Made by a program: the position numbers and the translations under genes. Source: Squalus acanthias (taxonomy: Eukaryota). From it: a stretch of DNA of 64,000 bases. Shown here in pieces: positions 2,587 to 40,530 of the stretch. The stretch is from positions 52,268,001 through 52,332,000 of the forward strand of contig CM059432.1 in NCBI GenBank assembly GCA_030390025.1, in the 5' to 3' direction. Under the pieces are notes generated by a model. It had not been told where the DNA came from, did no database searches, and saw nothing but the letters and a program-made list of their open reading frames with translations. Within the stretch, counting starts at the first letter, position 1; every line of letters starts with the position of its first letter.

Positions 2587-2588
2587 TA

Positions 2589-2631
<43 letters not shown>
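2587..2631. repeat. (TA)n microsatellite
   Basis: Direct observation. Confidence 0.95.
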
Positions 2632-2637
<6 letters not shown>

Positions 2638-11665: not shown

Positions 11666-12019
11666 GAATGGTGTGGGAGAGAACCTGTTTGACAAACTCA
11701 CTCTGGGAGAGAGCGATTAAAGTGACTACTGGGATCAAGCTTATTGTGGTTAGTACTCATGTTTATATAATTGTGTGTGAGACCCCTGCCTAGTAGGGAA
11801 TGATGGCTTGTGACTTTGTACCAAGAGCCGAGACCTGGGCTCTGTAATGTCATTAACTGTAAATAAATTGTTCAATTTTAAATTAAAAAAAAGAACTTAT
11901 TACAGACTGCTGTTAGTATTTTACACTCACTGATGAGGGCTATGTTCAGCACTGTGGAACCCTCCTTTTGTGAGGTGGCTTATTTGGAGGTAATGGATGA
12001 GAAACAATGCATTTAAAAT

Positions 12020-18510: not shown

Positions 18511-19502
18511 ATAAATGACTAGATAATCTGCTTCAGTGATGTTGGCTGAGAGATACATTTTTGACAGGGCACCAGGAGAACTCCCCTGTTCTTCTTCAAA
18601 TAATGGCATAGGATCTCATACATCTTACTGAGAGGGCAGACAGAGCCTCAATTTAATATCTCATCTGAAAGCTGGGCTTCTGACATTGCAGCACTCCTTC
18701 AGTACGGCACTGAAGTGTCAGCCTAGAATAAGTGGGACCTTCTAACTCAGAGGGGAAAGTACCAACTCTGAGCAAGGCTTGACACACCCTTCCTGCTTGG
18801 TGTCCATTCCTACCCCAGCCCACACATGAAGCACTTTGGGACATTTTGCTACGTTAAAGGTACTATATAAGTAGTATTTACTGTTATAATGTATCTGAAA
18901 GTAACATGTAACCTGAAATGTAGCATTTATTCAATTTCCTGCAAAAGGAGAATATATCTTCTCAAGGTAATTAAGGAACTAGATCCATATTGCCTGCAGA
19001 TTATTGTGAACTGAACATATACTGAAAGCTTCTCCCCCACAAAATTGCATTCGGTCAGAGGCAACCTAACATCCCTTCCACTGGATTGCTGCAGATAATT
19101 TGCTCACTGTAAGCAAACTAGGACAGGGTACTGGGTTATGTGAAAGAGTAACGTTAATGTAGGAGATGGGGTGTATAGGAGGATGAAGCAGCAGTACAGA
19201 ATAGGGTAGCAAGGATGCAGGAGAAAGGAATCTGTATGGGAGAGGCAGAGAGGGAAGTAGTAAAAGAAAGAAAGAAAGACTTGCATTTATATAGCGCCTT
19301 TCACGACCACTGGACGTCCCAAAGCGCTTTACAGCCAATGAAGTACTTTTGTAGTGTAGTCACTGTTGTAATGTAGGAAAATATGAGAAGAAAGTATGAG
19401 AAGAAGGGAGTGTGATTTGGCAATGACAATTATAATAGTGGGGATTCGTAGCAGAAAACAGAGGATCGGAGAAGGAAGCAGCAGAGGAAGGAAGCAGTGT
19501 GT

Positions 19503-20002: not shown

Positions 20003-20259
20003 TAATATAATTGTGTGTGAGACCCCTGCCTAGTAGGGAATGATGGCTTGTGACTTTGTACCAAGAGCTGAGACCTGGGCTCTGTAATGTCATTAACTGT
20101 AAATAAATTGTTCAATTTTAAATTAAAAAAAAGAACTTATTACAGACTGCTGTTAGTATTTTACACTCACTGATGAGGGCTATGTTCAGCACTGTGGAAC
20201 CCTCCTTTTGTGAGGTGGCTTATTTGGAGGTAATGGATGAGAAACAATGCATTTAAAAT

Positions 20260-21856
20260 AAAAAGAGGAGATATATTAAATAAACTAATCAAACTCAAAG
20301 AGGGAAAAAAAACCACGGATCACATCTGTGCATTTTAAAAGAATCTAGGGAAGAGATAGCAGAGGCATTACTACACATATTTAATAATTCGTTAGAAAAG
20401 GTGTAGTACCAGGGGACTGGCGGATAGCTAATGTAATATCTATATTTAAGAAGGGAGGTAGAACATGTCCAGGGAACTATAGACCAGTCAGCTTAACATC
20501 GGTGGTAGGAAAAATAATGGAATCCCTACTAAAGGAGAAAATAGAAGAACATCTAGAAGCCAAAAAATATAAAAATGAATAGTCAGCCTAGATTTCAAAA
20601 GGGAGAGTCTTGCTTGACCAACCTCATTGAATTTTTTGAAGAGGTAACAGAGAGAGTAGACATGAGTAATGTAGTAGATGTAATTTACCTAGATTTTCAA
20701 AGGTCTTCGATACGGTACCACATAATAGACTAATGAATAAGGTCAGAGAGTGTGGAGTCAGGGGACAAGTAGCAGATTGGATAGCTAACTGGCTTCAAGA
20801 CAGAAAGCAGAGAGTAAGGTTAAAGGTAGCTATTCACAGTGGCAGAAGGCGGGTAGTGGTGACCACTGTTGTTCACAATTTATATTAACGATTTAGACTT
20901 TGGAATCCAAAACACAATTTCTAAATTTGCGGATGACACCAAATTGGGGGGGGGGGGGAGATAGTCAATGCTGAGGAGGAATGCAACAAATTACAGGAGG
21001 ACATTAATAAACTTGCAGAATGGCATATAATTGGCAAATGAATTTCAACACAGATAAATGTGAGGTATTACATTTTGGTAGGAAGAATAGGGAGGTCACT
21101 TATTACTTGGAGGGTGTGAATCCGGGTGGGGTAGAGGAGTACAGGGATCTCAAGAGTACAAATACACAAATCACTAAAAGTAGTGATGCAGGTTAACAAG
21201 GCCATAAAAAAACAAACAAAGCACTAGGGTTTATTTCTAGAGGGATAGAATTGAAAAGTAGTGAAGTTATGCTAAACTTGTATCGAACCTTGGTTAGACC
21301 ATACTTGGAGTACTGTGTACAATTCTGGTCGCCATATTATATAAAGGACATAGAGGCACTGGAGATGGTGCAGAGAAGATTTACAAGGATGATACCAGAA
21401 ATGCAAGGGTATACCTGTCGGGAAAGGATGAACAGGCTGGGTCTCTTTTCGCTTGACAAAAAAAGGCTGAGGGGTGACCTAATGGAGGTCTTTAAAATTA
21501 TGAAAGGTTTTGAATGAGTAGATACAGAGAGAATGTTTCTACTTGTGGGGAAGAGCAAAACTAGAGGCCATCAATATAAGATACGTCACCAACAAATCAA
21601 ATAGGGAACTCAGAAGAAACTTCTTTACCCAGAGAGTGGTGAGAATGTGAAACTCACTACCACAGGGAGTAGTTGAGGCAAATAGTATAGATGCATTTAA
21701 GAGGAGGCTAGATAAGCACATGAGGGAGAAGGGAATAGAGGGTTATGCTGATAGAGTTAGATGAGGAAAGACGGGAGTAGGTTCGAGTGGAGCATAAATG
21801 CCAGCATGGACTGGTTGGGCCGCATGGCCTGATTCTGTGCCGTATATCCTATGTAA
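20260..21856 (+). mobile_element. CR1 LINE (duplicate of 12020-13627)
   Basis: Same sequence in duplication copy 2. Confidence 0.9.
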
Positions 21857-22734
21857 TCACAAGGCCCCTTGATAGCTGCTGAAGAAAACACCGGGCTTCT
21901 CCTGAGCCACTAACTGTTTCCCCACCCTAGAATAGGGACCCTCTTTCTCTCTGATCATGCACCTGCTCCATGCCACCTGGGGAAAAAAGAGAAGCTTCAT
22001 AGTCTATCCAGGAACATCCTTCTATTTTCACACCACAATTCTTCATACCCACACTTGTTTTTCCTGTTCCTCCACTTACTGCCTGACACAATTGTGCCAC
22101 CCTCTTACCAGGTCCTTCAATGCAGACTGAAGCAGGGCCCAGATTCCTGCTTGGGTACAGCTGCCTTCCTAGCTATGGCACAGCACAAACTTATTCACAG
22201 GGGATGGAACCTTTAAATAAATGTGAAGACCATCGACATGCAAATCGCAGCTTCTAGTGGTCAAAAATTACATTCAAAACTTACCATCGTTCATCAGAAG
22301 TTTCCACTATAAAAAGTCTGCACCATTACTTTTAAAAGTTGAAGATCCTCTGATTCTGAGTCTTTCATGGGGCTTCCATTTGACCTGCTCCTTTAATGTT
22401 GCTGCTGCCTTTATGGTCCAGGTAGTTCCAGGACTTCCTCTCACTTTCTTAGTGCACCCAATAGAGTTAGTGTCTCCACCAGTGCCCCAATGTCTGCCCT
22501 CTCCTAGCTAATGAGGACTTACTGGAAAATCAAGCTCTGGCTCAGCCACAGTGTGGTGTGCCCCTATTGCTCCCAGACAACACTTGCCCATGAAAATTGA
22601 CCATATTATTTTATTACTGAACAAATTTGTGGTGATTAAATTGGAGTCATTAATCCTGCTGCGTGAACGGCATCATGCATTAACTGCATTGTCATTGGTG
22701 TCCTACACCCACTGCAGGAAAAAAAGACCCTAAA

Positions 22735-23462
22735 GCCAACATGGATTTGTTAAAGGCAAATTGTGTTTAACTAACTTGATCGAGTTTTTTGATGAGGTAA
22801 CAGAGAGGGTTGATGAGGGCAATGTGGTTGACATGGTGTATATGGACTTCCAAAAGGCGTTTGATAAAGCAAGGAAGTTATGAAGAACTTTTATAAAACA
22901 CTGGTTCAGCCTCAACTGGAGTATTGTCTCCAATTCTGGGCACCACACTTTAGGAAGGATGTGAAGGCCTTAGAGAGGGTGCAGAAAAGATTTACAAGAA
23001 TGATTCCAGGGATGAGGGACTTCAGTTACGTGGATAGACTAGAGAAGCTGGGGTTGTTCTCCTTAGAGCAGAGAAGGTTGAGAGGAGGTTTGATAGAGGT
23101 GTTCAAAATCATGAGGGGTTAGACAGAGTAGAGAGAGAAACTGTTCCCATTGGTGGAAGGATCAAGAACCAGAGGGCACAGATTTAAGGTGATTGGCAAA
23201 AGAACCAAAGGCGACATGAGGAAAAACTTTTTTACGCAGCGAGTGGTTAAGATCTGGAATGCACTGCCTGAAAGGGTGGTGGAGGCAGACTCAATCGTGG
23301 CTTTCAAGAGGGAATTGGATAAGTACCTGAAGGAAAAACATTTGCAGTGCCACAGGGAAAGGGCAGGTGAGTAGGACTAGCTGAAGTGCTCATGCAGAGA
23401 GCTGACATGGGCTCGATGGGCTGAATGGTTTCCTTCTGTGCTGTAACCATTCTATGATTCTA
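22735..23462 (+). mobile_element. CR1 LINE fragment (duplicate of 14505-15232)
   Basis: Same sequence in duplication copy 2. Confidence 0.87.
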
Positions 23463-25352
23463 AAACAAAACAGAACCACCCTACAAATTTCGCAGAATAC
23501 ATTATCTTAAAAATGACCCCTGGTTGTGCTGAGTTTGTCAATCTCAGGCACGTGGTGATTGGAACACTACATGCAGTTTCAGTGCTGCTTCATTGGGAAG
23601 AGGAAAACTCAGCCAGGGTTCCTGAATGCTATCCAGTTATACTTGCTGGAGGTACAAGTGTTTGTGCATGAGATAATAATGGAGTTGGGTTCAACTCTGT
23701 TGGTCCTTGATGAGGTACCACAGAGCAAGTGGCATATGTGGGAGTATACTCGAGCATGTGTCCCCACCTTCAGGAAATACATAGAAGTTACCACACGGAA
23801 ACAGGCCATTTGGCCTAACCAATTCATGCCAGCATCCACCATCCATGCAAATAAATAGTTTTCATCGCATTTACCCGCCCTGTTCCCATATCCCTTCAAC
23901 CCCTTTTTCTTCATCCAACTATTCGCAGAGCTGGAAAGTGAATAGTTCTTTTTCGGGCCGGCACAGACATGATGGGCTGAATGACCTCCTTTTGTGCCGT
24001 AAACTTCTATGATTCTATCTAATTTGATTTTGACATAAGAGTAGAAGGGTAGGGGAAATATTTGTTGGGAAAACTGGAGGACATGAAAAACAATATGGGA
24101 TTAATGTTGCATTATGTGTCATATTATTAACAGATTCATTAAACATACGATAATTGATAGCAGTGAATATCAACACCGCAGATTGATAGGATGATGTGTA
24201 TAGCTCCTCATATAGCAAATTCTTTAGCTTGGGCTCAGCACTAGAGTAAGAAACCAAAGTTCTTTTATATTGCATTAAAACTTATGCTAGTGATGCCAGC
24301 TCCTGACAGGCAGGTCTTGAGCGGTTCTCTGCAACCCAAATCTAAACTTGCCAGGTCTTGCTAAGGCTGGTAACTGGGAAGACCAATTTTACTGGATCTT
24401 CCCAGCAACTGGCCTAAGCGAATCCAAGCAAGTTTACTTTCAGTTTGCAGCCAACAGTATGAAGCCCATGACTCAGGAACCAGCACTGCTTGCACAGGTC
24501 TAACACAACATTAAAATGGCTCAAGTCACGTTCCTTTTTGTACATTGGTGGCTAACTAGCAGTCTGAGAGCATGGCGTGTGGTTTGTTAGTGAAATAATT
24601 GAATGGAGGCAATATTGAATATGAATAAAAATGTTTGATTGTGATAAAGTAGATAAGATCAGAAAAGGGATGCTTCCTAGCAACAAAAATTGATATTGTG
24701 CTGTAAGGTAATGATTTACAGGGATCAGTTTATCCAGTTATACAAGGTTACAATACAAGTATCATCCTATACTTAGTCTGATATGGGTTTAACACCAGAG
24801 TGAATAACAACAACTTGTTATTTATATTTATATGAACCCTGCAATTAAAATAGTACATAATCATCCCAGTATAAGAGATGCCTTAGTTTGGTATGAGTTT
24901 GGCAATGCTGGAAGTAAGAAACTGGATCTGAATCTGGACATTGTTGAAGGGGTAGTGTATGAAATTGTTCGTCCTCTTTCTCTGATAGCTGTTAAAGGAC
25001 AGTGTGAAAAGTATGAAACATCTCATTTGTGATCTTCAGCCATCATGTCCTGATACTCTGGGAGTTTCTTCCTAAAACCCTCTGCCTTGCTGCATCTCTC
25101 CCCACATTCAAAAGCTTCCTCAAAACCTACCTCTTCAGCCATGCTTTCAGTCATCTCCCCTAACTCCTCTCCTAGGGAGAACAACAACTTACATTATTAC
25201 AACACCTTTCATGCCCTCAAGACCTCCCAAAGCGCTTCACAGTTGATTAATTAATTTTAAATTATAGTCAATGTTGTAATGTAGGCAGATGTGGCAGCCA
25301 CTTGGCACATAGCAAGATCCCACAAACAGCACAGAGATAAATGACTAGATAA

Positions 25353-26739
25353 CAACAGAAAACGCTGGAAAAACTCAGCAGGCCAGGCAGCATCCATGGA
25401 GAGAGAAACAGAGTTAATGTTTCAGGTTGAAGACCCTTCGTCAGAACTGGAAAAAAGCAGGAAATGAAATAGATTTAAAGCAAGTATAATGCTGGAAAAA
25501 GGGGGAGGGGATGAAAGAACAAAAGGGAAGGTCAGTGGTAGTATAGAAGGCAGGAGAGATTAAGAGACATTGAGAGACATTAAGAGATATTCAAGACAAG
25601 AGGAGGTGGTAATGTGACAGGTTGAGGCTAGATGAAGTGTGAAATGCGCTGGCAGAATGAAGGACAGCTGCCAGCTTCAGGGAGGGAAGAAAAAAAGGGG
25701 CCAAACAAAAGGGTGGATGAAAAAATAAAATATGTGTGTATATCTATATCTAGATGTGTCTATATCTATATCTCTATATCTATATCTATATCCATATCTA
25801 TATCTATATCTATATCTGATAGGGGCCGTGGTTATGATCTGAAATTGTTGAATTCTATGTTGAGTCCAGAGGGCTGTAGCGTGCCTAAACGAAAGATGAG
25901 GTGCTGTTCCTCGAGCTTACGCTGAGCTTCCGTGGAACAATGCAAGAGGCCGAGGACGGTGAGGTCAGAGTGGGAGTGGAGCAGAGAATTAAAGTGACAG
26001 GCCACCGGGAGCTCGGGGTTCCCCTTACGGACTGAACGGAGGTGTTCCGCAAAGCGGTCACCCAATCTGTGTTTGGTCTCCTCAATGTAGAGGAGACCAC
26101 ATCGTGAGCAGCGAATACAGTATACTAAATTGCAGGAAGTACATGTAAATCGCTGTTTCACCTGGAAGGGGTGTTTGGGGCCCTGGACAGTGGGAAGGGA
26201 GGAGGTAAAAGGGCATGTGTAGCATCTCCTGCGCTTGCACGGGAAGGTGCCGGATGAAGGGGAAGGGGTACTGGGGGTAGTAGAGGAGTGGACTAGGGTG
26301 TCGCGGAGGAAGCGGTCCCTGCGGAATGCTGAAAGGGGAGGTGAGGGGAAGATGCGTTTGGTGGTGGGATCACGCTGGAGGTGGCGGAAATGGCAGAGGA
26401 TGATCCGTTGAATGTGGAGGCTGGTGGGGTGAAAGGTGAGGACAAGGGGAACTCTATCGTGGTTCCGGGAGGGAGGGGCAGGGGTGAGGGCAGAAGTGCA
26501 GGAGATAGAACGGACACGGTCGAGGGCCGTGTCAACCACAGTAGAGGGGAATCCTCGGTTGAGAAAAAAGGAAGACATGTCGGAAGCACTGGTATGGAAG
26601 GTGGCATCGTCAGAGCAGATGCGGCGGAGACGGAGAAACTGGGAGAATGGAATAGAGTCCTTACAGGAGGTGGGGTGGGAGGAAGTGTAGTCCAGGTAGC
26701 TGTGGGAGTCAGTGGGCTTGTAGTGAATGTTAGTCAATA
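25353..26739 (-). mobile_element. Penelope-like element (duplicate of 17124-18510)
   Basis: Identical 301-aa ORF 25832-26737. Confidence 0.9.
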
Positions 26740-27873
26740 ATAAATGACTAGATAATCTGCTTCAGTGATGTTGGCTGAGAGATACATTTTTGACAGGGCA
26801 CCAGGAGAACTCCCCTGTTCTTCTTCAAATAATGGCATAGGATCTCATACATCTTACTGAGAGGGCAGACAGAGCCTCAATTTAATATCTCATCTGAAAG
26901 CTGGGCTTCTGACATTGCAGCACTCCTTCAGTACGGCACTGAAGTGTCAGCCTAGAATAAGTGGGACCTTCTAACTCAGAGGGGAAAGTACCAACTCTGA
27001 GCAAGGCTTGACACACCCTTCCTGCTTGGTGTCCATTCCTACCCCAGCCCACACATGAAGCACTTTGGGACATTTTGCTACGTTAAAGGTACTATATAAG
27101 TAGTATTTACTGTTATAATGTATCTGAAAGTAACATGTAACCTGAAATGTAGCATTTATTCAATTTCCTGCAAAAGGAGAATATATCTTCTCAAGGTAAT
27201 TAAGGAACTAGATCCATATTGCCTGCAGATTATTGTGAACTGAACATATACTGAAAGCTTCTCCCCCACAAATTGCATTCGGTCAGAGGCAACCTAACAT
27301 CCCTTCCACTGGATTGCTGCAGATAATTTGCTCACTGTAAGCAAACTAGGACAGGGTACTGGGTTATGTGAAAGAGTAACGTTAATGTAGGAGATGGGGT
27401 GTATAGGAGGATGAAGCAGCAGTACAGAATAGGGTAGCAAGGATGCAGGAGAAAGGAATCTGTATGGGAGAGGCAGAGAGGGAAGTAGTAAAAGAAAGAA
27501 AGAAAGACTTGCATTTATATAGCGCCTTTCACGACCACTGGACGTCCCAAAGCGCTTTACAGCCAATGAAGTACTTTTGTAGTGTAGTCACTGTTGTAAT
27601 GTAGGAAAATATGAGAAGAAAGTATGAGAAGAAGGGAGTGTGATTTGGCAATGACAATTATAATAGTGGGGATTCGTAGCAGAAAACAGAGGATCGGAGA
27701 AGGAAGCAGCAGAGGAAGGAAGCAGTGTGTCTGTGCAGGATGAAGGGGAAAGCAATATGGGAAGGAAACTACAATGGGGAGAACAGCAGCAATACAGGAG
27801 AGGAGGAACTCTACAAGAGAGGGGTGTGTGAATATAGTAGGAAGGAGTTGGTGATATGAGGGTGGGGATAGTG

Positions 27874-29571
27874 TGTAGAATTCGCAATATATCGCGATTT
27901 TGTTAATAAGGAGAAAACACAGAGTTTCGTTCAAACAGCTTTTATTTCAGCAGAATGCTGGCAGGTTTAAAGTGGACACAAGCAGCCTGTAAAATGGCCG
28001 CCGCACCTCGTGACAGAACATTCTAGACTTTTCAACAGGCAGACAAGATGGCGTTCCAATAAACATTTGTGCAAGATCGATTAAGATTCAGCACAGTGAA
28101 GATAATACACGAGACATTATGGGTTTGCAGTATACACATAGATACTGAAATCGGTCTCCCAGGTACAAAGGAAAGCCATTGTACCGAGTAATCAAGGGCC
28201 CATCCAAAAGACATTAATATGTAAAATCCCGACGACTCTACGATGAGAGAGCCGTTAGCAGGTAGTTATACAGGACACTTGGAAGCCCCAAACCCCTCCA
28301 GGGAGAACACCGACCGATTTAACAATGGGAGAAATATTAACAGGTACTCAGACATTTACGAGTAGCCCCGAAACCCATTAAGAACGGAGATCACCCATAC
28401 AAGACATTTGGGCGCCAAACCCTAAACAAAAGAATGGACATTATAGTTGGGCGGGAAACGGAAGATTTTGCACTATAATTGCAGGCTCCAAACCGTCCAT
28501 TCGCTCTCTTGCTCCTGTGCTTTTATCCGGTCGATTCGTAACCTCGTGGCTGCTCCTGTGTACTCGTAGTTGGGCTCGCTCCTGCTTGCCTGTTGCCTCT
28601 TCTGAAAAGACTGTTGAACTTTCTGATCCGATTCGGATCTACCTCGTGTCGCGTAACGAAGACCTATGTTGGTAACTGGCAGCGGAACCGAAGGCCCGAG
28701 ATGAGATGAGATGAGATGAGATGAGAAGAGAGGAAGACCATATCCATCGCCACGGTCAGTAAATCCCGACCGCGCCTGTAGGTCGATTAGCCAAGTTTTC
28801 CTCGCCAGGAAGACTTCTTCGAACTTATAACGAAACATATTGCATCGACGATAACTGGACTGTGCCCAAAGTAACTGGAACGTGAAAACATATCGTATCG
28901 ACGATATTGACAACTGTGCTCGAAGAGTACCTGTTAAGCCAACCAACACAGGTCTTCATCACAGCAGACGGTCCAGCCTGCTAGCCGGAGCAGCAGAAGC
29001 AAGTAAACAAGTGGGACCAGGAGATCTCCTGACCGACACGTGGGTGCTGCGGTGAAAAGCATCCGATCAGCTATTCGGAATTTCTCCGAGTTATCACGAG
29101 TGGTGAGCATGAGTCTCGAGATCCTACGAATCTAGTTTAGGATAGATATTGATAGGGGAGGGTTTAAGGATTAAGGATATTTGTAATGTGTGCCCCTATT
29201 TACTTTGTGCCGTTCGTTCCTCGTTTCCCTAAGATCGACTATATAACTGTTTGTAAGATTGTACTGTCATTAATCTGTGCTTATGACATGTATTTCATAA
29301 TCTTAAGTATCATGCAATAAAGATTTTCCATTTCGTACCATTCAAACCAAGTCTACATGAGTTTTATCTCCATTACTGCTCTCGCATCTAAGTCCAGTGT
29401 CTAGAACCGTAAGGGAGAGTGATTCGAACCACTCACAGGTGTGTCTAGTGTTCCCAGACTGGCTGGAGACCAGAACAGGCAACAAGGCCTAGACCCGCAC
29501 TGACATACAGGCTGCACAGAGCCGCGTGAATCTCACAGGCTGCGAGACACGCAGGGTCAGAATCCCTTACA
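27874..29571 (+). repeat. 5' LTR (1698 bp)
   Basis: Starts tgtagaattcg, ends cccttaca. GC box 28449, TATA-like 28474, (gagat)n at ~28698-28726, aataaa 29316-29321. Confidence 0.97.
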
Positions 29572-29575
29572 GAAA

Positions 29576-31387
29576 ATGGCGACCGCGGCAGGACACTGGC
29601 AGCGAGAGGGTAGTGTGTTAGATTTTGGAATGACTGTACGAAATGTTATGCAGGAAAAGATAGCGGATTATGTGTTTGGAAAGGTTAATCTAACTAAGAA
29701 ATGGATAAGTGAATTGTTAGCGGATAAGAGCCCACTAGAGGCAGCTGAAAGGTGGACAGATAGTAAAGAACATAGAAAGACACTTGAGAAAGCAGTCTGG
29801 CTTATGTGTTACAAAAGGCAGGTTCAGATTTCAAACCAGACCATTACAGCGCTAGTAGCTCGAATCAGTCATTTAGAGGGAGAAATGGAGGAGAAGGTTT
29901 CTGGAGGGGAGGTGCTCATTAAGAATTTAAATGAGTTACACCAAGAAAGCCAGGAAGTCTCCAGTCACCTTAAAACAAGGATAGATTATCTCGAGTGCCA
30001 GGTCACTGAGGCAAAATTGAATGAGAGCAGGTTAAAGGAAAGATGTAACCGCCAAGCTGCCCAGATAAGAACTCAAGAAGAAAGCTTGATGGGGGTTAGG
30101 GCGGCATATAAGTTGGCCCTTGAGGATAAGTTTCAGGGAGCCGATCATAGCGCCTGCCAAAGGGAGATAGAGCACCTCAAAAAGGCCGTGAACAATGCGA
30201 ACGGCATGGTGTGCCTTATCAATCCGTCGGCGCACCAGCCGCTAGTAAATGAGAGATTTAGAAAATCCCCACCAAGTAAAGCAGAAGAAGTAGTAGCCAC
30301 TGCGCCCTCCGCGCCACCCAGCTATTCAGAAACCTGGGTTAGGGAGGAAGCAATGGAAGAAACAAAAGAGCCCATTGAAAAGGAAGTAGAAAAGGGATCG
30401 TTGTATCCAGTAACGGGTATTAAAAGGGGCCCAAGCAGAAACGGTGGGGAAGAACCGGGGGATCTCCTCGGACAGCTGGTGTTGCCTCACAGTTCACATC
30501 AGCTGAGAGCTATGATAAATCACGTACGGAAGCTGACCGAGGTAGACGACCCTTCCGTACATTTCAGAGAAGTTGAGCAAGCCGCAGCCATTAACGGCTG
30601 CGATGATGGGGAAACAGCAAAAATGCTGCTGTTCTCATTAGACAGCTCGGTCCTTCAGTGTCTCTCAGGCGAGAGCAAGAGGGGAACCAAGAGTTATGAG
30701 GAATTAAAGAACGAGGTCCTGGAAGTGTTGGGGGCGAACGACGAAGGTCCGTTTGCTAGAGTGGGACAGACAGTGCAGATGGAGGGAGAACCCCCGAAGG
30801 TTTTTGCCGACAGGCTGTGGCCAGTATATGAGCGCAGCTGTCTAGGTGCGCCCGAGCGCGAAGATGTGGAAGGTTTAGCTTTAACTCATTGGCTTAGGTG
30901 CATAATAGCCAACAGTTTACCAGCCGTTAGAGAGCAGGCAAAAGCATGGTTTGATCCCAATGACCCCAACATTACGGAAGAGTCGGTCTTGAATCGACTC
31001 ACGTTAGGTTATCGCAATATAAGGGGTATGGCAACACGTCCCCTTAAGGGAAGAGTACATGAGGTACGACCCGCAGCCCCGTATCAAAGAGAGTGGCATC
31101 AGGAGGGTAATCGCGCCCCACAGGCAAGTAATGCTTGTTACGGGTGTGGGAAGACAGGGCACTGGCGCAAGCATTGCAGGAACCCTTGGAAGGATTCCAA
31201 GGATAAAAATCCCGCGGTCCGAGCCCAGGCGCCTGTCCCGGCTAAGGAAGCCAAGGCACCCACCCCTCCCGACGACCTCGAAGCAGTGTTAGGAGCCATG
31301 CGCAAGCTGGTCTTGAATGCGCGTGGACAGGTGGCGGTCGCAACCGGCCCCGTAGGTGTCGCAGGACCGTCTAATAGTACCCAATGA
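29576..31387 (+). CDS. gag: Gag polyprotein (603 aa): coiled coil, late domains, capsid-like region, CCHC zinc knuckle
   Basis: Uninterrupted ORF directly after the LTR; CYGCGKTGHWRKHC at 31136-31177; PSAPPSY at 30305-30325. Confidence 0.92.
   Translation: MATAAGHWQREGSVLDFGMTVRNVMQEKIADYVFGKVNLTKKWISELLADKSPLEAAERWTDSKEHRKTLEKAVWLMCYKRQVQISNQTITALVARISHLEGEMEEKVSGGEVLIKNLNELHQESQEVSSHLKTRIDYLECQVTEAKLNESRLKERCNRQAAQIRTQEESLMGVRAAYKLALEDKFQGADHSACQREIEHLKKAVNNANGMVCLINPSAHQPLVNERFRKSPPSKAEEVVATAPSAPPSYSETWVREEAMEETKEPIEKEVEKGSLYPVTGIKRGPSRNGGEEPGDLLGQLVLPHSSHQLRAMINHVRKLTEVDDPSVHFREVEQAAAINGCDDGETAKMLLFSLDSSVLQCLSGESKRGTKSYEELKNEVLEVLGANDEGPFARVGQTVQMEGEPPKVFADRLWPVYERSCLGAPEREDVEGLALTHWLRCIIANSLPAVREQAKAWFDPNDPNITEESVLNRLTLGYRNIRGMATRPLKGRVHEVRPAAPYQREWHQEGNRAPQASNACYGCGKTGHWRKHCRNPWKDSKDKNPAVRAQAPVPAKEAKAPTPPDDLEAVLGAMRKLVLNARGQVAVATGPVGVAGPSNSTQ
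29577..29594 (+). promoter_or_regulatory. Primer binding site, tRNA-Arg(TCG)
   Basis: TGGCGACCGCGGCAGGAC, 5 nt after the LTR. It is complementary to the 3' 18 nt (GTCCTGCCGCGGTCG-CCA) of vertebrate tRNA-Arg-TCG as I recall that sequence. Confidence 0.85.
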
Positions 31388-32497
31388 CTAGAGCCCACGC
31401 AGCCTGCCTACCTGTGTCCTTTTAAAAGACACGCACAGGAGGGGGTCTGCGGTGAGGAGGCCAGGTTAAAAGAGCAGGCCTTGCGGGAGGAGAACGCCCG
31501 CTTAATAGGGAAAATAGATGGGCTGGAAGGGCAGCTTAGAGAGCAGGCCCTGCGGGAGGAGAACGCCCGATCAATGGGAAAGTTAGACGTGCTCAGGCTA
31601 GAAGCGCAGCTTAGAGAGATAAAAGCAGCCTACAGGGTAGCCAAAAGCCGGGAGTATGAGGATGTAAACCAATGCAAACTGTACCAGCCAGGTGCGCAGG
31701 GGAAAACTACAGGGGTAAATCCCGCCAATGGGAAAGCACAGCCCCAGGTAGGACCACAAGGCACACAGGCAGGCATAGCAGCTTGCATCAGGGGAAGGGA
31801 CATCCCGGACGATCATGCAGCGTTTTTCTGGAATTGGGGGTTAGATGAGGAAGAACTCAGGGTACCCTGGTCAGATGAGGATAGTGCAGATGAGCATAGT
31901 GATGATGACGGGTGGTTCCTGAGGAACGGTCTGGAGGGAATGGGGGCTGTAGGTAGAGATCCACACAGGGTGGACACACAAGCTGCAGGTCCCGAGGACA
32001 GGAGGGAGGAGCTAGAGGAGGCAGGGCCAGCCGCTATAGGAGCACAGAGAGTACCGGTGTGGCTCCCAGAGATGTGGCCGCCCGCTTTGAACGTCCAGTC
32101 CTCAGGGGAGGCAGAGATCACGAGTGAAGGGCCGCCTGCTGGGCCGAGCAGGGCGGAGCCACGAACTGCCAGCCCCGAGGTTAGGGAGGCGGAGTCAGCG
32201 GAGGTGGAGCCGGCGACTGTGATGGAACCCCAGGTCATCCCGATGGAGGTCTCGGAACCCGGTCCGTCCGTCACGGAACCCCCGCCCATAGCAACTCCCC
32301 GTAGGTCAAGTAGAGAACCCCAGCCCAGGAGGATGTGGTCATGTCCCCAGACTGCCCCAAGGCGAAAATTTAAGGTTAAGATAACCCAGGTACAGACCGG
32401 CCACATCGCAGCAGTAACAGGCTGCGGCAGATCAGAGGGAAGGGTCAGTGCCCTCCCACCGTCGGGAAGAGCTCGCAGCAGCCTTCTCAGAATTTAA
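31388..32497 (+). CDS. ORF2, in frame with gag after TGA-CTAG; coiled-coil + acidic/Pro-rich protein of unknown function in the pol position
   Basis: No stop from 31388 to 32494 in the gag frame; no protease, RT, RNase H or integrase motifs seen. Confidence 0.7.
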   Translation, partial: LEPTQPAYLCPFKRHAQEGVCGEEARLKEQALREENARLIGKIDGLEGQLREQALREENARSMGKLDVLRLEAQLREIKAAYRVAKSREYEDVNQCKLYQPGAQGKTTGVNPANGKAQPQVGPQGTQAGIAACIRGRDIPDDHAAFFWNWGLDEEELRVPWSDEDSADEHSDDDGWFLRNGLEGMGAVGRDPHRVDTQAAGPEDRREELEEAGPAAIGAQRVPVWLPEMWPPALNVQSSGEAEITSEGPPAGPSRAEPRTASPEVREAESAEVEPATVMEPQVIPMEVSEPGPSVTEPPPIATPRRSSREPQPRRMWSCPQTAPRRKFKVKITQVQTGHIAAVTGCGRSEGRVSALPPSGRARSSLLRI

Positions 32498-32803
32498 AGG
32501 GGCCGCCCTGAGAACGGGCGGCACTGTAAAGTTATAGTAATAAGTTTTCAGTTTATAGTTCAAGGTTAAGTGTTAATATTTCAAGGTTAAGTTTATAGCT
32601 TTAATAAGGTTAAGTTTGTAGTGTTTTTAACAGAAAACGATAAAATGATGGGAGCTTTAAAGATAGGTTTAGTTGAAGTTTATTCAGCGAACGTTGAAGT
32701 TTACGTGAGGCGAGGTCAGGGGACCCGCTCACCCTTCACAAAAGCCAGAGACTCTTGCGAGGCTGGCTACCTCATTCTATCTGATCACAGGAACCAAGGA
32801 AGG

Positions 32804-35155
32804 ATGGAACGAATTCTAGTATTGCTCGTGGCAATCGGATGTGGATTGGCCTATCGAGGCCGCACCAAGGATGTCGTGGTGTTTGGATGTTCCGGGGACA
32901 CGGCCCCCATCGCGGTGGATGGGACCGGAAGACGGGAGGCAGAGGAGACCAGCACCTATTTCCACAAGGGAAGGTGGCCAGGATGGCTGGGAACGAACTC
33001 AACGGAGTATTCCAGCACGTCGGGGTTTGCCTACCAAGAGACTTCTTTACTGTGCCCCAAAGTAAGGATCATCGCACCCAGGATCAGCGTCACCGTCGGC
33101 AAACGGATTTGTTTGACTTGTAGTGGGAAGGTCCCATTGAGCCGATGGTGGTGGCTGCGAAAGCTGAGCAAAACTATGAGAAACTCTTCGGTCGAGTGGG
33201 AACGACTGGGTAATAATACCCATCGGACAATTACGGGGACAGACGGACAAGTGAAAGTCTGTTGGGACAAATGGTGGGAACCGGATGAGGGAATTTATGT
33301 ATGTATGTGGGGGTCAAAGTACGTTTGCCCCAAAGGCATCTCCATATTTTTTATTAATCAATGGCAGGATAACGGACAGGGGATGAGGTGGGATGCGAGC
33401 ACCAGGGGGTGCGGAGCCCCATTCTCCCCGATCCCAGTAAATGCCACTGAGCTCATTACGCGCCCACGCAAAGCCCCGCCCACGATTCCGGTGGTTCTAG
33501 CTGAGGAAGAAGGGTGCCCTAAAACTAGTAAGGGACCCGGGAATGGTTTGGTACTGGTCCCCACAGACCAGATACTATTTCAGGGGGTACATTACGCGGT
33601 GGCCTCGGTGATTTTAAATCTCACTGAGGTGCGGTTACCAGAGTGGTGCCCCAAAAAGACGGAACAGTTGTACCAGGTCCTGTTGACCAAGATGTTCAGA
33701 CAATTTTACGAATTCGATTTCGCGGAAATTGATAAAACAAGTTTGTACACCGCGCCACAGGAAGTTTTGGATCAAGTAGGGAGGCAAAGAAGGGGTTTGG
33801 TGAACGATGCGTTCACTGCTTTTAACACAGGTACATCTGTGGTCAACGCTCTAGACAGTGTGGAGCTGCAGACCCAGATTAATGGTTTAAAGACACAATT
33901 AAAAGACATTCTAACAGATGAGAATAAAGTGGTAGGGTCAGGTCTACACGAGGACCAAGCCATGACCCTCCATTTAAAGGAAATTATAGCAGAGTTGGAG
34001 AAACATGCAAAGACGGTAAATGCCCTGATTAGGGAAGATCGGAATGCATCCGATCAAGCTGCGCAGAACGAGGTGTGCGTGCTTTACGGGGCGTGGTTAC
34101 TGGGCGAGGGCCACAGTAATTTGGAGGATTTAAAACAAGGTTTGGTTCCGTCCTGGATAAGTAACAAACACCTACGGGCGCTCCACCCTTTTCAGAATGC
34201 ATTAAGCCCGTGCCAGCTCAGGCTAGCTTCAGAAGCATACCCAGTCCCCGTGGACTGCGGACGATCAAACCATACCATTATGGGTATAGTTTTACGCATG
34301 CCGGTTTTGGGCGACACAGCAAAGCCCGCCCCGGTATATCGGGTAGAGAACATCGGTGTCATTCAGGGGGGAGCCCACATTCGTTATGCAGCGGTTCCAC
34401 CTTACGTCATCCGCTGGGAGCAAACGATGACAGGTACAGATCTCTCTGGTTGTCGTGGCAGGGGAGCACACATAATACTGTGCCCCCAGCACTTGAATGC
34501 CTTTTTAACACCACAGTGCGGGTTCAGAACGGCTGGCGCCAAGTCCATGAATTGCACCATGGAGGCAATGGCACAAGATCATGTGCCTCCGCAGGTAGCA
34601 TACATCGGGGGTGGAACATATTGTGTTACCACTGCAGCGCAACACTACCAGCATGGAAACCGTAGCCGGTGTCCGGTGAGTGACAGCAGTTTCTGTTTTA
34701 AACCCAGGGCGGAAGTTCAAGTAGCACAACAGCGAATTATCCCAATCCCTGAACCATCCACTGTTCATCTCACGGTAAAAGAGAATTTCACCGACTTGCA
34801 GCGATTCGTCGCGCATTTTGGATACCTCATTCCCCCTCTCCCTGAACACCTCACCAAGCTTTTAAAAGCCGTCGCGGTGTCACAGAAACACTTTTACACA
34901 TTAGAGCAGAAAACTGTCGAAATAGGAACAGACATTCTGGATATAGTAGTTCCACCGTGGTGGAATCTGTTCACTAATATTGAAGTACCTTCATGGATCA
35001 GAATAGCCTCCCACATTTTAGTCGTATGCCAAGTTTTCATTGTAGTGTACCTATTGGTCGTACATTGTAAAAGAGACAAACGCCTCACCAAGCATGAAAA
35101 CACGGGAGAGTGGCGAGAACGTTACGTGCGCGTGCACGATGAAAGCACCGTGTAA
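32804..35155 (+). CDS. env: Envelope glycoprotein (783 aa): signal peptide, Ig-like domain, furin site, F-type fusion subunit, TM anchor
   Basis: MERILVLLVAIGCGLA signal; RQRR|GLVN at 33782-33793; heptad repeat; Cys-rich region; TM at ~35003-35068; about ten N-glycosylation sequons; splice acceptor at 32790. Confidence 0.9.
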   Translation: MERILVLLVAIGCGLAYRGRTKDVVVFGCSGDTAPIAVDGTGRREAEETSTYFHKGRWPGWLGTNSTEYSSTSGFAYQETSLLCPKVRIIAPRISVTVGKRICLTCSGKVPLSRWWWLRKLSKTMRNSSVEWERLGNNTHRTITGTDGQVKVCWDKWWEPDEGIYVCMWGSKYVCPKGISIFFINQWQDNGQGMRWDASTRGCGAPFSPIPVNATELITRPRKAPPTIPVVLAEEEGCPKTSKGPGNGLVLVPTDQILFQGVHYAVASVILNLTEVRLPEWCPKKTEQLYQVLLTKMFRQFYEFDFAEIDKTSLYTAPQEVLDQVGRQRRGLVNDAFTAFNTGTSVVNALDSVELQTQINGLKTQLKDILTDENKVVGSGLHEDQAMTLHLKEIIAELEKHAKTVNALIREDRNASDQAAQNEVCVLYGAWLLGEGHSNLEDLKQGLVPSWISNKHLRALHPFQNALSPCQLRLASEAYPVPVDCGRSNHTIMGIVLRMPVLGDTAKPAPVYRVENIGVIQGGAHIRYAAVPPYVIRWEQTMTGTDLSGCRGRGAHIILCPQHLNAFLTPQCGFRTAGAKSMNCTMEAMAQDHVPPQVAYIGGGTYCVTTAAQHYQHGNRSRCPVSDSSFCFKPRAEVQVAQQRIIPIPEPSTVHLTVKENFTDLQRFVAHFGYLIPPLPEHLTKLLKAVAVSQKHFYTLEQKTVEIGTDILDIVVPPWWNLFTNIEVPSWIRIASHILVVCQVFIVVYLLVVHCKRDKRLTKHENTGEWRERYVRVHDESTV

Positions 35156-35595
35156 TCGGAAAATGGCGTCACTCCCGCTCGCCGCGTGCGCCGCGGAAGT
35201 TTGTACTCATATAAGATTTTCAGAGATTGTAAATACGTTGGGAACTCGACATGTTTTAAGAGTTGGTGTTGATTTATTTTGGTGATGGTGTTACAGTTAA
35301 AAATGATTGTTTGGTTTTGGGTTTTTGTTTTTCCTTTCCCTGAATAAAAGATGAATATGCAGGTGATACGAGAGGCATCGGCCTGGTTACGCCGGGAAGG
35401 AAAACAAGTGGTGTAAGTTTAAGGGCAAATAATGCCTACGGTGATATAAAATGTAATCTTCTTGGGAAATGAGGACGACACAGAGACCCTAGCTAAGTTA
35501 AAATTATGGGATTAATTTACTGGATTCGGAGAGAAATCGAGATAACATTGCTCACCACTATGATTTTTGATACGATAAGCGGAGTTATTCGCATC

Positions 35596-35607
35596 AACAG
35601 GAGGGAC
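35596..35607 (+). promoter_or_regulatory. Polypurine tract
   Basis: aacaggagggac immediately before the 3' LTR. Confidence 0.8.
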
Positions 35608-37313
35608 TGTAGAATTCGCAATATATCGCGATTTTGTTAATAAGGAGAAAACACAGAGTTTCGTTCAAACAGCTTTTATTTCAGCAGAATGCTGGCAGGT
35701 TTAAAGTGGACACAAGCAGCCTGTAAAATGGCCGCCGCACCTCGTGACAGAACATTCTAGACTTTTCAACAGGCAGACAAGATGGCGTTCCAATAAACAT
35801 TTGTGCAAGATCGATTAAGATTCAGCACAGTGAAGATAATACACGAGACATTATGGGTTTGCAGTATACACATAGATACTGAAATCGGTCTCCCAGGTAC
35901 AAAGGAAAGCCATTGTACCGAGTAATCAAGGGCCCATCCAAAAGACATTAATATGTAAAATCCCGACGACTCTACGATGAGAGAGCCGTTAGCAGGTAGT
36001 TATACAGGACACTTGGAAGCCCCAAACCCCTCCAGGGAGAACACCGACCGATTTAACAATGGGAGAAATATTAACAGGTACTCAGACATTTACGAGTAGC
36101 CCCGAAACCCATTAAGAACGGAGATCACCCATACAAGACATTTGGGCGCCAAACCCTAAACAAAAGAATGGACATTATAGTTGGGCGGGAAACGGAAGAT
36201 TTTGCACTATAATTGCAGGCTCCAAACCGTCCATTCGCTCTCTTGCTCTCTTGCTCCTGTGCTTTTATCCGGTCGATTCGTAACCTCGTGGCTGCTCCTG
36301 TGTACTCGTAGTTGGGCTCGCTCCTGCTTGCCTGTTGCCTCTTCTGAAAAGACTGTTGAACTTTCTGATCCGATTCGGATCTACCTCGTGTCGCGTAACG
36401 AAGACCTATGTTGGTAACTGGCAGCGGAACCGAAGGCCCGAGATGAGATGAGATGAGATGAGATGAGAAGAGAGGAAGACCATATCCATCGCCACGGTCA
36501 GTAAATCCCGACCGCGCCTGTAGGTCGATTAGCCAAGTTTTCCTCGCCAGGAAGACTTCTTCGAACTTATAACGAAACATATTGCATCGACGATAACTGG
36601 ACTGTGCCCAAAGTAACTGGAACGTGAAAACATATCGTATCGACGATATTGACAACTGTGCTCGAAGAGTACCTGTTAAGCCAACCAACACAGGTCTTCA
36701 TCACAGCAGACGGTCCAGCCTGCTAGCCGGAGCAGCAGAAGCAAGTAAACAAGTGGGACCAGGAGATCTCCTGACCGACACGTGGGTGCTGCGGTGAAAA
36801 GCATCCGATCAGCTATTCGGAATTTCTCCGAGTTATCACGAGTGGTGAGCATGAGTCTCGAGATCCTACGAATCTAGTTTAGGATAGATATTGATAGGGG
36901 AGGGTTTAAGGATTAAGGATATTTGTAATGTGTGCCCCTATTTACTTTGTGCCGTTCGTTCCTCGTTTCCCTAAGATCGACTATATAACTGTTTGTAAGA
37001 TTGTACTGTCATTAATCTGTGCTTATGACATGTATTTCATAATCTTAAGTATCATGCAATAAAGATTTTCCATTTCGTACCATTCAAACCAAGTCTACAT
37101 GAGTTTTATCTCCATTACTGCTCTCGCATCTAAGTCCAGTGTCTAGAACCGTAAGGGAGAGTGATTCGAACCACTCACAGGTGTGTCTAGTGTTCCCAGA
37201 CTGGCTGGAGACCAGAACAGGCAACAAGGCCTAGACCCGCACTGACATACAGGCTGCACAGAGCCGCGTGAATCTCACAGGCTGCGAGACACGCAGGGTC
37301 AGAATCCCTTACA
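35608..37313 (+). repeat. 3' LTR (1706 bp)
   Basis: Matches the 5' LTR apart from an 8-bp tandem duplication (tcttgctc) near 36241-36256; aataaa at 37058-37063. Confidence 0.97.
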
Positions 37314-38019
37314 AGTGGTAGGTGATAATGCGCTTTGGATCTTGAGTCCACCCACTGGTTTCTGCATGTATCTGAATTGGATGTCAGTGGTCCGAATGTC
37401 AATTCAGCTAGTTTTAGTGGGAGGAGACAGGTCTCAGGTCTGGGTTTATCATTTCTACAGTTGCCAACCCACGATTTTCTGTCTATTTACTTTAATGGGC
37501 AGAAAATCATGGGCTGGCGAGGGCCGACGCACAAAGCCACTGCCTGTCTTTCAGAATTAATCAGGCCTCCTTTCACCAATATTAATGGGCCTAAAGTGCA
37601 GACTGAATTAATTCCCACTATTAATTGCATAGATTGTGATCTGAAATGCTGGAATTTTAGAACAAATGCATACTTTCAACTGTAGTGTTAGCAGTGCCTT
37701 TCAGAAAGATCAGTAAGAGTATACGGTGACTCCCTATGTCCTTCAACCAGTCTACTTTTCTTGTGATACAACAAACCTCTCCACACACTTTCCCATGTGT
37801 AGGAGTATGGATGTTATCAGCCAAGCAAAGCTTTAGGTATGCAAACTATGTAATGACATCACACATGCTCTACAGTTCAGGCACAATAGAGCTCCTTGAA
37901 CTCAAAGACAAACATTGAAGTTCAAAATTAAAATAGATAACATACCAAAAATATAACTTTAGTCATATGTTTTTCTTTCAAGATCTTTTGATTTTTTTAC
38001 ATTTTATAATTAGATTTTC

Positions 38020-40530
38020 TGTTCATTGTGCCACACATCATTTCCAGCTCAGAGGACAGGCAGACAGATAACCCCCCGAACTGGAAAATTTCATCAACTT
38101 TGCTTCAAAATTCCACCCCTCCCTCGCCTTCACATGGTCCATATTCGACTCTTCCCTTCCTCGACTTCACTATCTCCATTTCTGGGGATAGGCTATCGAC
38201 CAATATCCACTATAAGCCCACTGACTCCCACAGCAACCTTGATTACACTTCCTCCCACCCCGCTTTCTGTAAGGACTCTATTCCATTCTCCCAGTTTCTC
38301 TGTCTCTGTCGCATTTGTTCTGATGATGCCACATTCCACACCATATGTCTTCCTTTTTCCTCAACTGAGGATGCCCCACCACTGTGGTTGACATGGCCCT
38401 CAACCGTGTCTGTCCCATTTCCCACACTTCTGCCTTCACCCCTTCCCCTCCCTCCCAGAAGCATGAGAGGCCCCCCCTTGTCCTCGCCTTCCACCCCACC
38501 AGACTCCACAATCAACGGATCATCCTCCGCCATTTCCGCCACCTCTAGTTTGATGCCACCACCAAACACATCTTCCCCTCCCCTTTCAGCATTCCGAAGG
38601 GACCATTCCCTCTCCGTTACCTTGGTCCACTCTTCCTCACTCCAAACACCCGCTCCCCTTCCCATGGCACCTTCCTGTGCAAGCACAGGAGATGCAACAC
38701 CTACCCTTTCACCTCCTCTCTTTCCACCGTCCAGGGCCTCAAACTCTCCTTCCAGGTGAAACAGCAATTTACTTGTACTTCTTTCAATTTAGAATACTGT
38801 ATTCGCTGCTCACGATGTGGTGTCCTCTGCATTGGGGATGACCAAATTGGGTGATCGCTTTGCTGAACATCTCCATTCAATCACAAGCATGACCCTAAGC
38901 TTCCGATCATTTGCCATTCTAATTCTCCGTCCCACTCCCACTCTGACCTCGACCTCCTGCACTGTTCCAATGAAGCTCAACAGAAGCTCGAGGAACAGCT
39001 CCTCATTTTTCAATTAAGCATTTTACAACCATCCGGACTCAACATTGAGTTCAATAACTTCAGATCATAACCACTGCTCCCATTTTTTTGGACAGCAGGT
39101 GCTGATAGTGTAAACAGTAAATTCTAGAGATACTCATCAGGTCAGACAGCATCTGTGGAGAGAGAAACAGAGTTAACATTTCAGGTCAATGGCCTCAGAT
39201 GAAAAGTCATCGACCTGAAACAATGGCCCAGAAATTCGGGTCCCCACGGGTGAGTACGTGCTGTGTACTCACCTGTAGGGCCACCGGAAGAGCCAGTTTC
39301 GCGCATGCATGGGAAACCGGAACTTCCGGTCTCTTGAAGGAAGGGGTTCGCGGGTCAACCGCGTGCGTGGGAGAGGCAGCGCGTACGCATCAAACTTCCA
39401 CTTTTTTTACAGGTTTCTCAGTGCGGCTAAGTCCCTAGCAGCTGCGCGTGGAAAAAGCAGGCGCAAGGCCTGCTTTTAACAAGGTAAGAGGTGAATTAAG
39501 TAAAATTGAAACATTTTTTCCACAGGTTTATCATTTTTAAATACTTTAAAGAAAGGTAAGTTTATTTTTAGCCCCGTTAAAAACTTTAATAAATTTTTTC
39601 AAAAATTTAAATTTTTGTTTAAAATAGTTAATTTATGTAATTTATAGTTATTTAAAAAATGTGATTTTTAAAAAAATTATTTGAAGTTTTACTTAGGTTT
39701 TGGGGCCGATCTCTATTCATAGATTTGACAGGTCTTCCTGTCAAATCTATGAATGGAGATTCCCTGCTCTGATTGGCTCCCCATGGACCACGTGATCCCA
39801 GGGGACGGTGCAAACTAGTTGCGCCGCTGGGATACGCGAGGACTGCACACCGGCAGCTGGAGGAGGCCCAGGATCGGAATCCCACGCGGGCCCACAGCAC
39901 AACGGCAGGTGCGCTATGTAAGTGCACCCGCTATGCTTGCACCCGAGGGAAGCCTCCGACCCGAATTTCTGGGCCAATATTAACTCTGTTTCTCTCTCCA
40001 CAGATGCCTGATCTGCTGAGTATTTCCAGCATTTTCTGTTTGTATTTCAGATGTTCAGCATCTGCAATATTTTGCTTTTGTTTTAGATGCTACTAATGGT
40101 TCTGCTGTTGCCATTTACAGCTCCTCTAGACCCATCGTTTGTTTCTTTACTTGTCCCATTACCCACCCCCTATTGCCTTGCACCATCATCCCTTTTGTCA
40201 TTTAATCACTCCTGCCCTCCACCCTATCACAGATCTTCATAAGAACAAAAGAACATAGGAATTCGGAGCAGGAGTAGGCCACACGGTCCCTTGAGTCTGC
40301 TCCGCCATTCAATAAAATCATGGCTGAGTTACTTCAACTCCACTTTCACCTTTGTTCTTTCCTCCCCTCCCTCCCCCCTTTTCCCTGACTCTGCACTTGC
40401 TTATAAACTGTTAAATCTCTAATTTTTCTCAGTTCTGATGAAAGGTCATCGAACTGAAACATTAACACTGTTTCTCTATCCATAGATGCTGCCTGACCTG
40501 CTGGGTATTTCCAGCTTTTTCTGTTTCTAT
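38020..40530 (+). mobile_element. Decayed Penelope-like element with nested insertions in its 3' UTR
   Basis: LPFLD, YKPTDSHSNL, IPFSQFL, LGDRFAEH motifs across frameshifts (38020-39070); tail with hammerhead at 40431-40467. Confidence 0.85.
39225..39975. mobile_element. PIF/Harbinger-type MITE
   Basis: TIR ggcccagaaattcgg...ccgaatttctgggcc with 3-bp AAT TSD; related to 42931-43684. Confidence 0.85.

Follow-up and report, generated by a model that had tools for sequence, protein, structure and literature searches.

We analysed 64,000 nucleotides of the genome of the shark Squalus acanthias (assembly GCA_030390025.1, contig CM059432.1, positions 52,268,001-52,332,000, forward strand). This whole stretch is called the window, and coordinates below are window positions unless a locus or contig is named. 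On the plus strand, at 27874-37313, the window holds a provirus with paired long terminal repeats (LTRs), a target-site duplication (TSD), a primer binding site (PBS), a polypurine tract, and gag and env frames. Our analysis indicated that this element is very probably one insertion of a non-autonomous, pol-deleted morph that is mobilised in trans and belongs to a very young family of endogenous retroviruses (ERVs) with an F-type envelope. We observed that the enzymes are absent, that the lesion is shared, that the insertions are independent, that partners with an open pol exist, that the two forms exchange sequence, and that gag and env are constrained. We infer that the enzymes are supplied by the full-length siblings.

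Loss of the enzymes and the full-length siblings

The interior between the two LTRs is 6036 bp long and contains three open frames in one common phase, with 603, 369 (stop to stop) and 836 codons. All stop-to-stop segments of at least 30 amino acids in its six frames (n = 108) were scanned with Pfam. None of the 108 matched the models for protease, reverse transcriptase (RT), RNase H or integrase (RVP, RVT_1, RNase_H, rve) at E ≤ 0.01, and the sole match of any kind was a sub-threshold one to Rab11-FIP3. An earlier reading made from the letters of the window alone (the sequence-only reading) had seen no pol motif in the interior, and the scan agrees with it.

We then searched the animal's own 3.7-Gb genome with the interior and scored 27 matches out of 6676 first-look candidates. 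Seventeen of them, the window copy included, span all 6036 bases at 98-100% identity, one covers bases 1095-6036, and nine cover only bases 2094-6036. The nine partial matches all start at the identical base, which is window position 31665. In one of the nine (L019), the sequence upstream of this base is an open frame that covers the last part of RNase H and the whole of integrase, and it is continued, with no stop between, by ORF2, the second of the three open reading frames (ORFs). The next 8 kb upstream contain a 5' LTR, the same PBS, and a gag that is 98.5% identical up to window 31419 and is followed by 3620 bp absent from the window element.

The gag of this sibling has 631 codons from stop to stop and ends with TGA, after which a pol frame follows in the same phase. 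The pol frame meets no stop in the 1217 codons up to where the retrieved locus ends, and it has about 1494 codons in total. Its domains are RVT_1 (E = 3.6e-36), RT_RNaseH_2, RNase_H, Integrase_H2C2, rve and a weak RVP, and the env frame of the sibling is open too. The full-length form is about 12.8 kb long with the order gag-TGA-pol-env, and its LTR, PBS, gag and env are common to the pol-less form at about 98% identity; the sibling was read over about 11.7 kb of the 12.8 kb, from the 5' LTR to about 1.5 kb into the 3' LTR. Thus the pol-encoding relative with the same LTR and arginine PBS, for which the sequence-only reading had suggested a search, exists, and it shares gag and env as well.

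Compared with structures in the PDB, the sibling Pol is about equally close to the enzymes of Ty3, murine leukaemia virus and foamy viruses, and its best integrase match is the integrase of prototype foamy virus (PFV). The nearest named relatives of Pol are 'NYNRIN-like' ERV proteins of frogs and coelacanth (43-46% identity). Foamy viruses (Spumaretrovirus) have a Gag without a Cys-His knuckle, and their Pol is not produced as a Gag-Pol fusion. A classical foamy virus is accordingly spoken against by the CCHC knuckle and by the in-phase gag-TGA-pol arrangement in the sibling.

In the pol-less element, the gag TGA is followed by a 32-nt stub of the pro-pol start (31388..31419, in frame), and then by a foreign insert of 245 bp (31420..31664) that stands in for the 3620 bp of pro-pol in the full-length sibling. 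The stub equals the sibling at 25 of 32 bases, which is far below the identity of about 98% found elsewhere. The insert is in frame, its coding sequence is coiled-coil-like, and it includes a 69-bp tandem duplication (31471-31524 / 31540-31593). Its length is 245 bp in 17/17 pol-less copies, with 0-8 differences each. The variants of insert and stub in these 17 copies (4 synonymous, 9 non-synonymous) are too few to show constraint. Neither the full-length sibling nor the rest of the window contained a counterpart of the insert, BLASTP between insert and gag gave nothing significant, and the translated insert had no protein relative among longer proteins. A search of the own genome for its source returned only the family's own copies, which saturate the search.

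Behind the insert lies a remnant of the Pol C-terminal tail, the part downstream of integrase (31665..32497), in frame with insert and gag. ORF2 (31574-32497; 307 amino acids from its ATG, 369 codons stop to stop from 31388) is composed of the last 91 nt of the insert (31574-31664) and this tail. It is no gene of its own; the 245-bp foreign insert is continued, in the same frame, by the Pol C-terminal tail. Of the three uninterrupted ORFs described in the sequence-only reading, all are open, but the second does not stand as a separate gene. The post-gag frame is open in 18/23 pol-less copies (6/6 among the six extra copies introduced below), and read-through of the gag TGA would yield a Gag-insert-tail protein free of enzymes. 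Antisense to the Pol-tail remnant there is a 226-codon frame (31813-32493, minus strand) without a Pfam match, which is probably a by-product of G+C-rich, low-complexity sequence.

Repeated insertion, coding constraint and rival explanations

The same lesion, in which 3.6 kb of pro-pol is replaced by the identical 245-bp insert, was present in each of at least 23 pol-less copies examined (23/23). These are the 17 copies with the whole interior and six more that were picked by a perfect insert alone and are up to about 5% diverged; the pol-bearing sample comprises nine copies. A probe made of the insert gave 1343 first-look candidates and a pol (RT) probe of equal length gave 788, neither figure being a copy number; 40/40 scored matches of the insert probe were about 100% identical, and the pol probe again gave 40/40. 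Both forms are clearly abundant. A lone pol-less copy with a deletion after its insertion, set beforehand in the sequence-only reading as the outcome that would count against it, is excluded by the shared lesion.

The ends of 11 pol-less copies (the window copy and ten others) were compared. Nine of them, on different contigs, have unrelated flanks and distinct 4-bp TSDs (AGTG, ACGG, TCGG, GAGA, CACT, CACC, CTAT, GGTA and CTCT). As for the remaining two, the 5' LTR of L004 is irregular, and L008 runs on into a tandem array. Two pol-less copies (L007 and L014, with flanks L035/L036 and L043/L044) are nested in LTRs of the same family, and one of these host LTRs is only about 90% identical. This indicates that the genome also holds an older, related family, from which the insert might stem. 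Repeated integration of the pol-less form, with TSDs of the integrase type, has thus taken place though it has neither integrase nor RT of its own. Other copies with the same gag-ORF2-env layout and different TSDs had also been proposed for a search, and they are found in number (17 whole interiors and six more, with distinct TSDs in 9/11).

Contigs from public runs, under three coded labels (A to C), bridge both insert junctions, and one run also has the full-length junction, with a loose end at 31665. In runs X1, X3, X9 and X10 (29200-35700), with four coded organism labels that are perhaps not separate species, there are many contigs at least 99% identical to the window copy. A splice joint between leader and env was not seen in the contigs examined, and none of the runs is recorded as RNA.

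The two LTRs of the window copy show no substitution over 1698 aligned bases and differ by a single 8-bp indel (GCTCTCTT). For the LTR pairs of the 17 pol-less copies, we counted 0-6 substitutions in 1143-1345 aligned bases (0-0.46%), while the interiors differ from the window copy by 16-105 substitutions in about 6030 bases (0.27-1.74%). Because LTR-pair divergence is far smaller than interior divergence, most differences between copies predate insertion and arose in replicating lineages. With the mammalian rate of 2.2e-9 quoted in PMC7947760, the window copy would be roughly 0.13 million years old or less, and older if the rate of the host is slower. Recent mobility in the pol-less form, as suggested before from the near-identical LTRs, is supported by the LTR pairs together with the distinct TSDs.

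We estimated the ratio of non-synonymous to synonymous polymorphism (pN/pS) among the pol-less copies. It was 0.21 for gag in frame versus 1.25-1.74 in the shifted frames, 0.55 versus 1.16-1.27 for the post-gag frame, and 0.09 versus 2.4-3.3 for env. None of 95 substitutions in env created a stop (about 4.4 expected), and one of 82 did so in gag (about 4.0 expected). The gag frame is open in 21/23 pol-less copies (15/17 interior-matched, 6/6 insert-picked) and the env frame in 19/23 (15/17 and 4/6). No further deletion of gag or env was found in the 23 copies, diverged up to about 5%. Gag and env are under coding constraint among the pol-less copies.

The comparison of the two forms covered the shared region 31665-35607 in 24 pol-less and nine pol-bearing copies and used the 155 biallelic sites whose minor allele is present at least twice. 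At 97 of these 155 sites, each allele is found in pol-less and pol-bearing copies alike, giving all four form-by-allele combinations, and a tree of the shared region intermixes the two forms. Since every pol-less copy has the identical lesion, the lesion has a single origin; given the shared alleles, the two forms must recombine. Among the first eight variants beside the junction, seven occur only in pol-less copies. This would be expected if exchange is hindered close to the breakpoint.

These results can be arranged into the following mechanism. In a single ancestral event, 3.6 kb of pro-pol (protease, RT, RNase H, integrase) would have been swapped for 245 bp of unrelated in-frame sequence, with the LTRs, the tRNA-Arg PBS, the whole of gag, the Pol C-terminal tail, env and the polypurine tract kept. 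The pol-less RNA would be packaged into particles holding Gag-Pol made by a sibling in the same cell. Reverse transcription from the tRNA-Arg primer and integration, both by sibling enzymes, would then produce the 4-bp TSDs, and during copying the pol-less RNA would recombine with sibling RNA. The sequence-only reading had proposed a helper-dependent virus of satellite type. Its core, that Pol is borrowed in trans, is supported; a separate satellite lineage of independent origin is not, for the element derives from a full-length virus by deletion and substitution.

Several points weigh against this reading. The case is built from DNA sequence. The reading over most of the length covers one full-length sibling, whose putative competence is judged by open frames, and the calls of variants as 'pol-less only' rest on just nine pol-bearing copies. 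The copies examined are those most like the query or with a perfect insert, which biases the sample towards young and intact copies, and the candidate counts of the two probes say little about true numbers. The polypurine tract is only 8 nt long, and the gag ATG overlaps the PBS. Because the forms recombine, gag and env could owe their constraint to full-length viruses, and gene conversion at the DNA level could mimic recombination of RNA. Finally, some copies lie in tandem arrays of LTR-interior-LTR-interior, so part of the amplification took place at the DNA level.

What the morph's own genes do is less certain than its dependence on a helper. We lean, with some reserve, towards the view that its Gag and Env are made and aid its spread through particle formation and reinfection, and are not merely carried. 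The pol-less RNA could instead be a passive passenger, an intracellular template for the siblings' proteins, whose frames look open and constrained only because the family is very young and keeps taking in sequence from full-length viruses that are themselves under selection. We regard this as the less favoured of the two, though a serious possibility: recombination is pervasive (97/155 sites), the tree is intermixed, and other known defective ERV morphs, as far as PMC10924933 describes them, are without working genes. Against it, gag and env are free of further deletion in 23 copies differing by up to about 5%, and the env variants present in at least two pol-less copies and in 0/9 pol-bearing ones are still 24 synonymous to 7 non-synonymous. 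A bolder extension of the trans-mobilised reading is that the morph forms a self-sustaining satellite lineage. It would keep its own capsid and F-type envelope by selection on the morph itself, need only Gag-Pol from the helper and by now exceed it in germline numbers, and it might pass from one individual, or one closely related host, to another as a defective-interfering partner of the full-length virus. We put this forward as a speculation that is rather unlikely to hold in full.

Spread at the DNA level, by segmental or tandem duplication of one deleted provirus and not by reverse transcription, would account for the tandem arrays (C16:35641363-35655143, C11:50287215-50301003, C352:56744-69397 and L008; spacing about 7.74 kb). 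In two interior pairs, on C16 and C11, the members are 7.7 kb apart, and the 3' LTR of L008 is directly followed by a second PBS. Such arrays would be expected from unequal recombination between LTRs, and as the origin of the copies in general this process is very improbable, since 9/11 copies have their own TSDs and unrelated flanks on different contigs, and two are nested in LTRs of the same family. Loss of pol at the window locus, after insertion of a full-length virus, gains something from the existence of full-length siblings; it can practically be dismissed, because the same breakpoints and the 245-bp insert recur in 23/23 pol-less copies and 40/40 scored probe matches. It is also conceivable, though improbable, that the element is a transducing virus, in which part of a host gene was captured as the insert and the read-through product of Gag, insert and tail has its own function, like the gag-onc fusions of acute defective retroviruses. 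The insert is indeed foreign to the sibling, in frame past the gag TGA, coiled-coil-like and constant in length (17/17), and the post-gag frame stays open in 18/23 copies. On the other side, the insert has no protein relative and only a sub-threshold Pfam match, and its variants with those of the stub (4 synonymous, 9 non-synonymous) are too few for constraint. The diverged 32-nt stub moreover suggests a piece of an older related element, as PMC10924933 reports for cattle, mouse and koala.

Proviral signals, structural proteins and surroundings

The provirus is flanked by two copies of the 4-bp TSD AGTG on the plus strand (27870..27873 and 37314..37317). The 5' LTR (27874..29571, plus strand) is 1698 bp and the 3' LTR (35608..37313, plus strand) is 1706 bp long, and both have TG...CA ends. 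TATATAA lies at 29240 and AATAAA at 29316 in the 5' LTR; in each LTR, AATAAA is 76 bp downstream of TATATAA. The PBS (29577..29594, plus strand, 18 nt) begins 5 nt past the 5' LTR. ARAGORN predicted a tRNA-Arg(TCG) gene in the own genome, and once CCA is added to the 3' end of this gene, the PBS is complementary to that end at 18/18 nt. An exact copy of this PBS was found in 16/17 pol-less loci, in 6/6 extra pol-less loci, and also in the full-length sibling L028. The short polypurine tract (35599..35606, plus strand, AGGAGGGA) ends two bases ahead of the 3' LTR. The architecture that had been described for 27874-37313 (TSD, LTRs, PBS, polypurine tract) was thus recovered completely.

In the genome, there are 426 occurrences of the tRNA-Arg(TCG) 3' end, many of which belong to long tandem arrays that repeat about every 1623 bp. 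An example is found on contig C26 at about 39.0-42.2 Mb (L049:1449-1523).

The gag gene (29576..31387, plus strand) has 603 codons and a TGA stop. Because its ATG overlaps the PBS, the true start may be further downstream. The predicted protein has a long N-terminal coiled coil, an all-helical middle and one CCHC knuckle at residues 520-535 (about 31133-31180), for which the matches are weak (Pfam E = 0.29; PDB nucleocapsid E = 0.06-0.13). Look-alikes found with a language model (Atlas) fall into Retrotrans_gag / zf-CCHC clusters (score 0.92). The single-sequence AlphaFold model was too poor for a fold search, with a predicted local distance difference test score (pLDDT) of 40. The assignment as gag is supported by its equivalent position ahead of pol in the full-length sibling.

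The env gene, ORF3 (32645..35155, plus strand), has 836 codons. Its product has a hydrophobic segment at the N-terminus, the cleavage motif RQRR (residues 380-383) and, at 787-805, a membrane anchor towards the C-terminus. By sequence, Env had no Pfam or PDB match, and PF00523 did not match at E ≤ 1. We therefore turned to an AlphaFold model built from 31 sequences, with a mean pLDDT of only 58 and values of 70-95 across most of residues 290-360 and 440-700. Residues 298-705 are predicted to fold like the F protein of paramyxoviruses and pneumoviruses. Foldseek matched the model to 1ztm (E = 4.4e-11), and VIA to 1ztm_B (Z = 13.2) and 1g5g_A (Z = 12.5; root-mean-square deviation 5.7 over 318 residues). 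Foamy-virus Env was absent from the 36 Foldseek matches and the 50 VIA matches listed, although a likeness to it may still exist outside these lists. Judged by this model, ORF3 is an envelope gene of the class I fusion glycoprotein type.

We detected 49 relatives of Env among 1.84 billion representatives, none in a named family; 15 of them were scanned for a known Env family, and the scan gave only one sub-threshold match, to Baculo_F (0.0011). The nearest named relatives are from skate and sawshark. Ahead of the F-like body, residues 1-297 (32645-33535) are mostly modelled with low confidence, and there is a weak Ig_3 match (E = 0.51) at residues 141-220.

Other repeats surround the provirus. 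A direct duplication of 7.7 kb (11765-19502 and 20005-27730; 99.4% identity, about 500 bp between the copies) ends 144 bp upstream of it. Each duplicate contains a 309-codon minus-strand frame (17603-18532, 25832-26761) without a Pfam match, and an inverted piece 81% identical to the duplicated sequence lies at 38194-39081. At 46482-47195 on the minus strand there is a 238-codon frame with a DDE_Tnp_4 transposase domain (E = 2.2e-25), probably of a DNA transposon of the Harbinger/PIF type. Another dispersed repeat has three copies in the window (3218-3647, 52293-53071 and 58979-59763; 84-86% identity).

Comparison with known systems

Lokiretroviruses, as described in PMC7947760 and PMC9040795, have the order gag-pol-env, a dual RNase H and an Env like the F protein of paramyxoviruses and pneumoviruses with a basic cleavage site. 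According to the same papers, some of them carry a coiled-coil (smc) coding sequence, and their hosts are lower vertebrates. The present family is similar in layout, dual RNase H and F-like Env, the F likeness here being one of predicted fold alone and not of a PF00523 match. The words 'cartilaginous' and 'shark' are absent from the main texts of both papers, and 'chondrichthy-' is absent from that of PMC9040795. If the model of Env is right, the range of retroviruses with an F-type Env would be extended to cartilaginous fishes. In the literature on lokiretroviruses, on pol-deleted or trans-complemented ERVs, on ERVs with intact gag or env, and on ERVs of sharks, skates and other elasmobranchs, mostly judged without the full text, we came across no account of the present family.

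Defective ERV morphs living at the expense of competent relatives are considered to contribute to the extinction of ERV families. To our knowledge, the known defective morphs have lost their genes. A pol-less morph with constrained gag and env at many independent sites raises the question of whether structural proteins favour the very RNA by which they are encoded. It also raises the question of whether the family spread by env-mediated reinfection, beyond intracellular copying. Both partners have open frames and the family is young, and the dynamics between helper and parasite are therefore open to study with population data.

The defective morphs ETn/MusD and IAP I-delta-1 of mouse and recKoRV of koala keep at most parts of gag, pol or env. 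PMC10924933 describes ETn/MusD, IAP I-delta-1 and recKoRV/KoRV-A as systems in which defective morphs are complemented by relatives, the centre often being swapped for a piece of an old retroelement. The present morph resembles them in its trans-mobilisation, its replaced centre and its kept terminal regions; it is unlike them in that none is described, in the part of PMC10924933 drawn on here, as keeping both full structural genes minus pol alone. In chicken EAV-HP, the whole of pol is gone and parts of gag and env as well (PMC3554524, in the part drawn on here). The absence of pol is common to both, and gag and env are whole only in the shark element.

The closest parallel is the bovine family ERVK[2-1-LTR], in which, as PMC10924933 reports, a defective D-type and a competent C-type morph share the LTRs and the flanking parts of gag and env, and the central segment is swapped for unrelated sequence. 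The D-type is at least as numerous as the competent morph and has no intact reading frames. The two bovine morphs recombine, with tighter linkage beside the breakpoints, which has been read as a sign of co-packaging (PMC10924933). Two morphs, a swapped centre, recombination and variants linked to the junction (7/8 here) are common to the bovine and the shark pair. Unlike the bovine D-type, the shark morph has a complete and constrained gag (603 amino acids) and env (836 amino acids); its host is a cartilaginous fish, its Env is of the predicted F type, and it is not a betaretrovirus. Thus the kind of element, a trans-complemented defective ERV morph, is already known, and what is unusual is that only the enzymes are lost, with both structural genes whole and constrained.

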